Positions 62,373 to 62,827 of a DNA stretch of 64,000 nt are shown piece after piece. The notes under the pieces were generated by a model that had not been told where the DNA came from, searched no databases, and saw nothing but the letters and a program-made list of their open reading frames with translations. The DNA is taken from assembly GCF_055900595.2 (NCBI RefSeq), contig NZ_CM148325.1; one strand, 5' to 3'. The first letter of the stretch is position 1. Every line of letters begins with the position of its first letter. The translations under genes were made by a program, and so were the position numbers.

Positions 62373-62403
62373 CTCGCTGATTAAAATATCCAGGGAAGGA
62401 AAT

Positions 62404-62667
62404 ATGATCGATCTGAAGAACCAGGAACGGGAGATTATCAATTTAATGTTCAGCCAGGGTATATCCTGGCTAACCGCCGTGCGTATCAGGCATAAACTAT
62501 CACTTGCTGAAGTTAGTAAAATGTTGGGTATCTCGATTAATTCTCTAAAACAAATCGAAAAGACGGAACGGCTTAGTTCAAACATCAAAAACAAAATGGC
62601 AGGAATTTATGGTTGTCCGCCAGAGTTGCTGATATGCCCTTACTGGATGACGGCTGAACATAAATGA
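62404..62667 (+). CDS. Small XRE-family HTH protein (87 aa), function unknown
   Basis: AT-rich ORF starting 31 nt after the lplA stop; ...HKLSLAEVSKMLGISINSLKQIEKTER... resembles a helix-turn-helix of Cro/C1 type. Confidence 0.55.
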   Translation: MIDLKNQEREIINLMFSQGISWLTAVRIRHKLSLAEVSKMLGISINSLKQIEKTERLSSNIKNKMAGIYGCPPELLICPYWMTAEHK

Positions 62668-62765
62668 ATAGATTCGTGAATAGATACTCGAATGGATTTA
62701 ATTTTCTATCCATATGAAAAATAATAGTAAATCTATAAATCAGTCGCTATTGATGAATAGATACT

Positions 62766-62796
62766 AAAAAGCCGGAGCGGTCTCCCGCTCCGGCTT
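62766..62796 (-). terminator. Rho-independent terminator of deoD (end of deo operon)
   Basis: Minus strand reads aagccggagcgggagaccgctccggcttttt: GC hairpin followed by T-run about 30 nt after the deoD stop. Confidence 0.6.
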
Positions 62797-62827
62797 CACA
62801 CGACAATCGCCTTTCAGCGAAACACAA

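Follow-up and report, generated by a model that had tools for sequence, protein, structure and literature searches.

The 64,000-nucleotide (nt) stretch of DNA that was analyzed here (contig NZ_CM148325.1 of RefSeq assembly GCF_055900595.2), referred to as the window below, contains in its last 5 kb the genes radA, serB, ytjB, lplA, deoD, and deoB, of which ytjB and lplA are located on the plus strand and the other four on the minus strand. Between the stop codons of lplA and deoD lies an interval of 455 bp (62373-62827), which holds one open reading frame (ORF) of 87 amino acids (aa), the subject of this analysis. A first-pass annotation of the sequence had described this interval as about 450 bp long, with an AT-rich 87-aa helix-turn-helix (HTH) ORF in the same orientation as lplA, and this description was accurate: the GC content of the ORF is 0.375-0.39, compared to 0.54-0.60 in the flanks, and the matching profiles as well as the predicted fold are of the XRE type. 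The ORF is annotated in RefSeq by the Prokaryotic Genome Annotation Pipeline (PGAP) under the generic label "helix-turn-helix domain-containing protein", and the entry WP_000566247.1 is 100% identical to the window protein. This annotation, the relatives in PHROG 7241 (E = 2e-9), and a syntenic ortholog that also has 87 aa argue that the HTH ORF is more than a chance reading frame.

The first-pass annotation had also placed the HipA-like gene yjjJ, also named hipH, between deoD and lplA on the opposite strand in K-12. Indeed, in K-12 MG1655 hipH (b4385, 1332 bp) exactly fills the gap on the strand opposite to lplA, and the stop codons of hipH and lplA abut with 0 bp between them. The homology between the two allele types ends at the base after the lplA stop codon and sets in again no more than three bases away from the hipH start codon, and in a blastn comparison of the two intervals the match was restricted to positions 287-455 of the window interval, which was used as the query. 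The 169 bp common to both alleles (62659-62827) comprise the upstream region of hipH and the deoD terminator hairpin. The HTH ORF crosses the junction: its last three codons CAT AAA TGA (His-Lys-stop) overlap the old hipH ATG, of which the CAT on the plus strand is the relic and now the penultimate sense codon, as well as the first unit of a ATCTATTCA repeat array, inside of which the TGA (62665-62667) is situated. An inverted or remnant N-terminal HTH of hipH was rejected as the origin of the ORF, since BLASTP against HipH yielded nothing meaningful and blastn of the cassette matched only the shared upstream region. On the minus strand, the stranded hipH ATG opens a 27-codon ORF, MFSRHPVRAYQQLWRTTINSCHFVFDV (62581-62661), which overlaps the HTH gene at its 3' end in antisense. 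This ORF has no family match and is also open in the further HTH alleles that were checked.

HipH orthologs (47-70% identity) are encoded directly after deoD in Salmonella enterica, Citrobacter freundii, Cedecea davisae, Erwinia tasmaniensis, and one further enterobacterial taxon. In K-12 as in these five taxa, hipH is preceded by one distal ATCTATTCA copy at a distance of about 75-100 nt from the ATG and by three tandem copies with a period of 12 bp, which end 3-4 nt before the ATG; a few copies are one or two bases off the consensus, and the sequence between the distal and the proximal copies has diverged beyond recognition across the genera. Because hipH is syntenic after deoD in other genera and is accompanied there by the conserved array, hipH appears to be ancestral and the HTH cassette derived. 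The cassette would then have replaced the hipH coding sequence long ago and stranded the hipH promoter and the array, and the first-pass annotation, which implied that K-12 is the reference state, has to be reworded in this respect: hipH is the ancestral occupant across the Enterobacterales, and the cassette an old replacement that left promoter and array behind. The reverse direction, that is, an ancestral HTH gene and an insertion of hipH in the K-12 and B2 lineages, might be argued from the prevalence of the HTH allele, which is in the majority in E. coli and extends to Escherichia marmotae, to cryptic Escherichia lineages, and to one lineage of other enterobacteria. However, it is largely refuted by the position of hipH with its deeply conserved array after deoD in Salmonella, Citrobacter, Cedecea, and Erwinia, and the HTH allele itself holds the array and the hipH ATG without hipH, so that this direction is scarcely credible.

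In K-12, an RpoD site (TTTTCA-18-TCTATT) has been identified in the deoD-yjjJ spacer by genomic SELEX (systematic evolution of ligands by exponential enrichment), together with H-NS binding (PMC3946193). The window contains TTTTCA-18-TCCATT as its counterpart, a putative promoter. The ATCTATTCA array itself could serve as the operator to which the N-terminal HTH of HipH binds or, alternatively, could be the site of the reported promoter-level response to cyclic di-GMP. A description of the array was not found in the literature that was searched, and a search with the motif gave only unrelated primer matches among the matches listed. In the 64-kb window the exact 9-mer occurs five times, compared to an expectation of 0.45, and three of the five copies are within the lplA-deoD interval. 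The other two copies are also intergenic, one at 23736-23744 (minus strand), 20 nt upstream of the GTG start codon of nhaA, and one at 38486-38494 (minus strand), right after the thrC stop codon; both are probably due to chance.

The array is subject to erosion in the HTH alleles. One copy is degenerate or polymorphic, and three of the nine alleles in the alignment (L013, L008, and L009) lack a 12-bp unit (62673-62684 in the window). In the non-Escherichia lineage that carries an HTH ortholog (L015 1128-1335), the spacer to deoD is filled with palindromes resembling repetitive extragenic palindromic elements, and a single degenerate repeat unit, GTCTGTTCA, is left at the stop codon of the ORF. 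These observations bear on a possible local circuit, in which the HTH protein would use the array as its operator and would control the orphaned hipH promoter, from which antisense transcripts would now enter the HTH gene and lplA. Such a circuit would fit the nearly intact array and -35/-10 relic beside the gene in the Escherichia alleles as well as the convergent transcriptional overlap of yjjJ and lplA in K-12 (PMC12288877). Yet the array is conserved together with hipH across orders and hence belongs to hipH, it erodes in HTH alleles, the L015 lineage has kept the protein while the array is almost gone, and the HTH domains of HipH and of the 87-aa protein are unrelated; the circuit is thus very unlikely. 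Because the array belongs to hipH across orders and is nearly gone in L015, where the protein is kept, it is probably not the operator of the 87-aa protein. The orphaned promoter may still drive antisense transcription into the HTH ORF and lplA, by analogy with the overlap in K-12.

To determine how common the two alleles are, 5426 complete E. coli genomes were searched. The HTH interval was present in 4037 of them (megablast, at least 80% coverage) and is the majority allele, whereas hipH was present in 1346-1348; about 40 genomes have neither the HTH cassette nor hipH. Among the hipH carriers, 401 are at least 99% identical to K-12 and are apparently largely laboratory derivatives, while the remainder, to which the B2 strains CFT073 and NU14 belong, have 95-99% identity. 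Intact HTH cassettes are found in BL21(DE3) (ECD_RS22500, WP_000566150.1), in O157:H7 Sakai (ECs_5344, "transcriptional regulator"), and in O145:H28, and HB101 also carries the cassette. The haplotype of the window is a minority variant, with only 193 genomes at least 99% identical over the interval. The first-pass annotation had regarded the locus as unusual, which does not hold in view of these numbers, and had added that it would be ordinary if K-12 and most strains carried the ORF: most strains do, K-12 does not. A scan of genome contigs with exact peptide patterns recovered only two Escherichia loci, the patterns being too specific to sample other species.

Several genomes depart from the two allele types. 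E. coli HS-02 (L005 2962-3156) has an empty allele of 195 bp that keeps the left junction of the cassette, CTCGCTG, without the ORF; both of its remaining repeat units are 2 nt shorter (TGAAGAT versus TGAATAGAT), which could be a concerted change or a systematic assembly error. In WB61 (L021 3001-3192) only a stump of hipH, about the first 190 nt, is left, and in CFT073 (L004 3397-3855) an IS200C element between hipH and deoD parts hipH from some of its upstream region. The hipH alleles thus also decay or suffer disruption, as seen in CFT073 and WB61.

The 87-aa protein matched the Pfam families Sigma70_r4 (PF04545, 1.7e-5), HTH_3 (7.8e-5, residues 25-75), HTH_25 (4.3e-4), HTH_19 (5.9e-4), and HTH_31 (5.4e-3). 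An AlphaFold2 model, based on an alignment of 27 sequences, had a mean pLDDT (predicted local distance difference test) of 90.9 and an all-helical XRE-type fold, with an N-terminal helix (residues 4-18), the XRE bundle (22-29, 34-41, 45-54, 59-69, and 73-76), and a tail of 10 residues. The best Foldseek matches of this model were C.BclI, CylR2, SinR, 434 Cro, and P22 C2, with probabilities of about 1.0 and E-values of only about 0.02-0.1, and the structural neighbors had template modeling scores of 0.5-0.77 and root mean square deviations of 1.5-2.1 Å across 53-60 residues. A sequence profile search of the PDB found 434 Cro with E = 4.6e-4 and also matched CylR2 and P22 C2. The protein thus has both a profile match to the XRE/Cro-C1 group (HTH_3 clan) and the five-helix fold with a helix 2-turn-helix 3 arrangement, and DNA binding is predicted. 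The best-scoring Pfam family does not imply a sigma factor fragment, which was rejected: only a region-4-like stretch matches (PF04545, residues 4-53), and the structural neighbors are XRE proteins. Members of the sigma-70 family have region 4 together with region 2 (and 3) and at least 160 aa, while the protein has 87 aa and scored 18 bits with TIGR02937, for which the cut-off is 42.9. Among the NCBIfam matches at E ≤ 1 there was no HipB model, only marginal PezA and NadS matches far below the curated cut-offs. A HipB-like partner of hipH was rejected for this reason and because the cassette and hipH are alternative alleles of one site; next to the HTH ORF, no gene for a HipA-family kinase was found in the region 59000-64000 of the window.

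The relatives of the protein outside of Escherichia point to antitoxins. The 87-aa protein matched PHROG 7241 with E = 2.1e-9 at positions 54-121 of the 122 profile positions, and tblastn detected a regulator of the Pasteurella phage Pmp14 (38% identity, E = 6e-6) as well as a regulator of an E. coli phage. A profile search across 1.84 billion representatives gave 184 matches below 1e-10; the proteins outside of Escherichia that matched the full profile in a single stretch have 95-158 aa, with the matched part at their C-terminal end. A word-based search of 5.8 billion proteins returned only copies from Escherichia and Shigella, many of them truncated. The full-length relatives consist of a RelB/Phd-like N-terminal motif, an acidic linker, and the HTH domain, and they are encoded directly downstream of, or overlapping with, a gene for a ParE/RelE-family toxin (PF05016) of 86-98 aa; the Pmp14 toxin, for example, matched ParE_toxin PF05016 at 7e-10. 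The antitoxin N-terminus of a phage relative matched the RelB-like PF18506 at 4.4e-5, a match that is absent from the 87-aa ORF.

The C-terminal HTH domain of PHROG 7241-type antitoxins thus has a homolog in the 87-aa protein. However, the start of the ORF aligns with residues 45-55 of the full-length antitoxins, so that the N-terminal RelB/Phd-like segment is missing, and so is a cognate upstream toxin gene: lplA ends 31 bp upstream, and no further ORF fits into the gap. The protein lacks two features that define type II antitoxins, and because the toxin-binding N-terminal segment and the partner toxin gene are both absent, it cannot be a canonical antitoxin. Judged by these alignments, it probably derives from the DNA-binding half of an antitoxin with a RelB-like N-terminus and an XRE-like C-terminus (RelB-N/XRE-C). 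One of the suggestions of the first-pass annotation, an orphan antitoxin-like regulator or the remnant of an inserted element, is therefore favored, as the protein has its nearest relatives outside of Escherichia among the HTH domains of antitoxins whose genes come after those of ParE/RelE toxins; a further suggestion, a novel small regulator, was not borne out in view of the weak constraint and the amber codon described below.

It is conceivable that the solo HTH protein acts in trans as an anti-addiction factor that represses or interferes with ParE/RelE modules of prophages or plasmids, for example that of PPyecE_EH1910, and thereby protects the host, and its homology to the DNA-binding domain of such antitoxins, including the copy in an E. 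coli phage, is in line with this idea. The identity to the phage antitoxins is, however, only 27-38% and the recognition helix has diverged; in addition, a protein without the RelB-like toxin-neutralizing segment could at most act on the promoter, and frequent nonsense alleles speak against a strong benefit. This role is thus extremely unlikely.

Selection on the HTH gene was assessed at two evolutionary distances. A syntenic ortholog (P0096 in L015, 87 aa, about 40% identity) was found on the Logan contig DRR526040_81833, which stems from another enterobacterial lineage; it is flanked there by lplA (90% aa identity) and the end of deoD. Between the window and this contig, dS (synonymous divergence), dN (nonsynonymous divergence), and dN/dS were 1.67, 0.54, and 0.32 for the HTH ORF, compared to 1.52, 0.059, and 0.04 for lplA. 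An 87-codon frame that is open at a saturated synonymous distance indicates that selection has kept the HTH ORF, and the similar dS values of the ORF and lplA fit a co-divergence of the ORF with its flank. A second apparent 87-aa homolog, P0080 from a Logan assembly, was discarded: it differs almost exclusively by changes of the C-to-T type (R>W, S>F, A>V, H>Y, P>L, and T>M) and looks like an assembly of bisulfite-converted or deaminated reads rather than a real variant.

Within Escherichia, dN/dS of the HTH ORF was 0.12-0.25 for the window versus other alleles and 0.4-0.7 in some pairs, compared to 0.01-0.10 for lplA and deoD, and the variable sites of the ORF were distributed 12/8/17 over the three codon positions, which is only a mild excess at the third position. 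An amber mutation at codon 50 (CAG to TAG) is present in 1691 of the 5426 complete E. coli genomes, including O104:H4, and the intact CAG haplotype in 2036; the copy in the window is intact. PGAP has labeled the gene as having an internal stop or a frameshift in four of the genomes sampled (S1, C311, GN02270, and GTEN_23). Altogether, roughly 40% of the HTH cassette carriers have an amber or frameshift allele. In our reading, the HTH gene was long kept under weak constraint and is now dispensable across much of E. coli.

Some of these results could also be expected for a dead relic, namely a fragment of a disrupted toxin-antitoxin module that has no function today and is open by chance or by recent ancestry. 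The amber codon in 1691 of about 4037 carriers, the existence of frameshifted alleles, a dN/dS that is 5-10 times that of the neighboring genes, the mild third-position excess, and the absence of both the toxin gene and the N-terminal segment all fit such a relic. However, dN/dS values of 0.12-0.32 are well under 1, exactly 87 codons were kept in L015 at a dS of about 1.7 and a dN of 0.54, which neutral decay would not allow, and the ORF has a plausible Shine-Dalgarno (SD) tract and a confidently predicted fold. A dead relic is therefore unlikely, though it has to be taken seriously.

Taken together, the results lead us to favor, with moderate confidence, the reading that the HTH ORF is a real, lineage-restricted gene for a solo XRE/Cro HTH domain that stems from the DNA-binding half of an antitoxin, has replaced hipH, and is now decaying. 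In an ancestor of Escherichia, a 286-bp cassette with the reverse orientation would have taken the place of the hipH coding sequence. The exchange would have begun directly behind the lplA stop codon and stopped at the hipH ATG, so that the hipH promoter and the four ATCTATTCA copies were left in place and the new HTH ORF came to terminate within the retained array. No terminator-like site was found between lplA and the HTH ORF (scan of 62200-62900), and the sole sigma-70-like match (62381-62408) overlaps the start codon; matches were not more numerous than in shuffled sequences, and an own promoter of the ORF was rejected. Read-through from lplA is thus the simplest route of transcription, and the HTH ORF would be the last cistron of a ytjB-lplA transcript that would extend at least as far as the deoD hairpin. 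From the HTH ORF a small DNA-binding protein of the XRE type would be made, which most plausibly serves as a repressor. Weak purifying selection would have maintained the gene for a long time, and present-day E. coli would be in the process of losing it.

Several points weigh against this scenario. About 70 residues align with the antitoxin family, at 26-38% identity and in a fold that is very widespread, the derivation rests on the extra N-terminal helix and an IY-C-PE-L motif with no close donor, and the recognition helix starts with Gln in the antitoxin family, in contrast to Ile in the window protein. Two of the seven antitoxin relatives that were examined have no intact toxin gene alongside, so that solo forms may be natural in this family. 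The L015 ortholog is represented by a single Logan contig of 1.4 kb, and a word-based search with P0096 returned P0096 itself and no other relative from the database. A cassette that is indeed as old as the genus would make it hard to explain why E. coli has kept the relic of the hipH promoter nearly intact. Finally, no report on the HTH gene, be it on expression, DNA binding, or a phenotype, was found in the literature by locus tag (ECs5344, Z5987, and Z5988), and papers on yjjJ/hipH are silent on the alternative allele.

The deoD-lplA slot might be an ancient, possibly selectively maintained dimorphism across enterobacterial lineages, in which the HipH kinase allele and a domesticated, still functional antitoxin HTH represent alternative regulatory strategies. 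The function of the HTH allele might then be, for example, control through the retained array or promoter or interference with incoming ParE/RelE modules; we regard such a dimorphism as distinctly improbable.

The features of the interval and its flanks are compiled in Table 1.

Table 1. Features of the lplA-deoD interval and its flanks; coordinates refer to the window unless another locus is named.
Feature	Coordinates	Strand	Remarks
lplA (lipoate-protein ligase A)	61356..62372	+	TAA stop codon at 62370-62372 is the left edge of the variable segment
Allele-specific cassette, 286 bp	62373..62658	+	No detectable hipH similarity; stands in for the hipH coding sequence minus its ATG (1329 bp)
Purine-rich SD-like tract AGGGAAGGA before the ATG	62392..62400	+	From the sequence
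XRE/Cro-type HTH ORF, 87 aa, ATG start	62404..62667	+	31 bp after the lplA stop codon; co-oriented with lplA
Codon 50 of the HTH ORF	62551..62553	+	Part of the predicted recognition helix; Gln, encoded by CAA in this copy and by CAG in the majority of alleles
Relic of the hipH start codon (CAT on the plus strand)	62659..62661	-	Allele alignments; hipH homology resumes here
Three tandem ATCTATTCA units, 12-bp period	62665..62697	-	Exact at 62665-62673 and 62677-62685; degenerate ATCCATTCG at 62689-62697
hipH promoter relic, TTTTCA (62715-62720) - 18 nt - TCCATT (62691-62696)	62691..62720	-	Putative; sequence comparison with K-12
Distal ATCTATTCA copy, adjoining the deoD terminator	62754..62762	-	Invariant in all genera compared
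Arrays of four ATCTATTCA copies	Window 62659-62766; L001 2660-2778; L024 3390-3509; L025 3392-3509; L027 3392-3509; L036 2354-2506; L037 2351-2506	- (window)	Comparison upstream of hipH
deoD terminator, G+C-rich hairpin, loop of 4 nt between perfectly paired arms of 12 bp	62769..62796		Inverted repeat and folding
deoD (purine nucleoside phosphorylase)	62828..63547	-	Right-hand conserved flank; stop at 62828

The deoD terminator hairpin folds at -29.9 and -24.6 kcal/mol (z about -5.2) and is followed by a U-tract on the minus strand but not on the plus strand. An Rfam search of the interval at E ≤ 1 returned no structured RNA apart from a 19-bit chance match over this terminator. The minus-strand ORFs of the interval (87 aa at 62331-62594, 42 aa at 62585-62713, and the 27-aa ORF at the hipH ATG relic) have no family matches and were classified as non-genes, and a palindrome with arms at 62731-62742 and 62751-62762 was dropped as a candidate operator, as its arms were conserved no better than its spacer, judged from a few alleles. 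The lplA gene of the window is unusually divergent: none of the complete E. coli genomes is at least 99% identical, the best match has 98.9%, and 4543 genomes are at 90-95%. In comparison with typical strains, lplA has a dS of about 0.25 and deoD one of about 0.13-0.17. Strain RMDEC465 is identical to the window over the interval and deoD, yet its lplA has a dS of 0.098, a pattern that indicates a recombination breakpoint inside or near lplA.

The HipH protein has been studied as a persistence factor and kinase toxin of E. coli, always in K-12 or uropathogenic backgrounds. About three quarters of the complete E. coli genomes, including BL21(DE3), HB101, O157:H7, and O104:H4, carry the HTH gene and lack hipH. 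As most E. coli strains lack hipH, conclusions on HipH are not transferable to most strains. The HTH gene is the ordinary state of E. coli and already annotated. It encodes a solo XRE domain with a probable origin in an antitoxin and does not represent a system of a new kind. The by-products of the analysis, that is, the exact swap of a coding sequence for a cassette, the lack of hipH in most E. coli strains, and the conserved ATCTATTCA array, are more useful than the gene itself. Under the scenario that we favor, the cassette offers a clean example of an antitoxin DNA-binding domain that has outlived its toxin and then decays. For annotation, the label "HTH domain-containing protein" could be changed to "solo antitoxin-type HTH", and pseudogene calls could be checked against the amber allele.

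Comparison with known systems places the 87-aa protein as follows. HipH/YjjJ, a HipA-family Ser/Thr kinase toxin with an N-terminal HTH, occupies the identical slot between deoD and lplA, and both genes encode an HTH; however, HipH is encoded on the opposite strand, has 443 aa instead of 87 aa, contains a kinase domain, and has no sequence similarity to the 87-aa protein, and hipH and the HTH cassette are mutually exclusive alleles, not partners. The small XRE/Cro regulators (434 Cro, the N-domain of P22 C2, C.BclI/C.AhdI, CylR2, and the N-domain of SinR) have the same predicted fold, but the 87-aa protein is only 16-30% identical to them and adds an N-terminal helix and a C-terminal tail. Antitoxins of the HipB, MqsA, and HigA types are XRE-fold DNA-binding type II antitoxins, and the full-length phage relatives of the ORF match HipB and MqsA weakly in NCBIfam; in contrast to these antitoxins, the 87-aa ORF has no adjacent toxin gene and no Zn-binding or toxin-binding domain. 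The closest likeness is to the RelB-N/XRE-C antitoxins (PHROG 7241; Pmp14 gp33 and gene 290 of Enterobacteria phage PPyecE_EH1910), with which residues 3-77 align over the whole C-terminal domain, from the helix ahead of the XRE fold through the invariant Y-x-C motif; A25, R27, E52, A66, Y69, and C71 are invariant. Unlike these antitoxins, the 87-aa protein lacks the N-terminal segment of 40-60 residues with the RelB/Phd-like motif LQYINDxxGxPxFVxLPIEEF, and it alone has a private C-terminal tail of 10 residues, CPYWMTAEHK, and a fixed chromosomal position after lplA.

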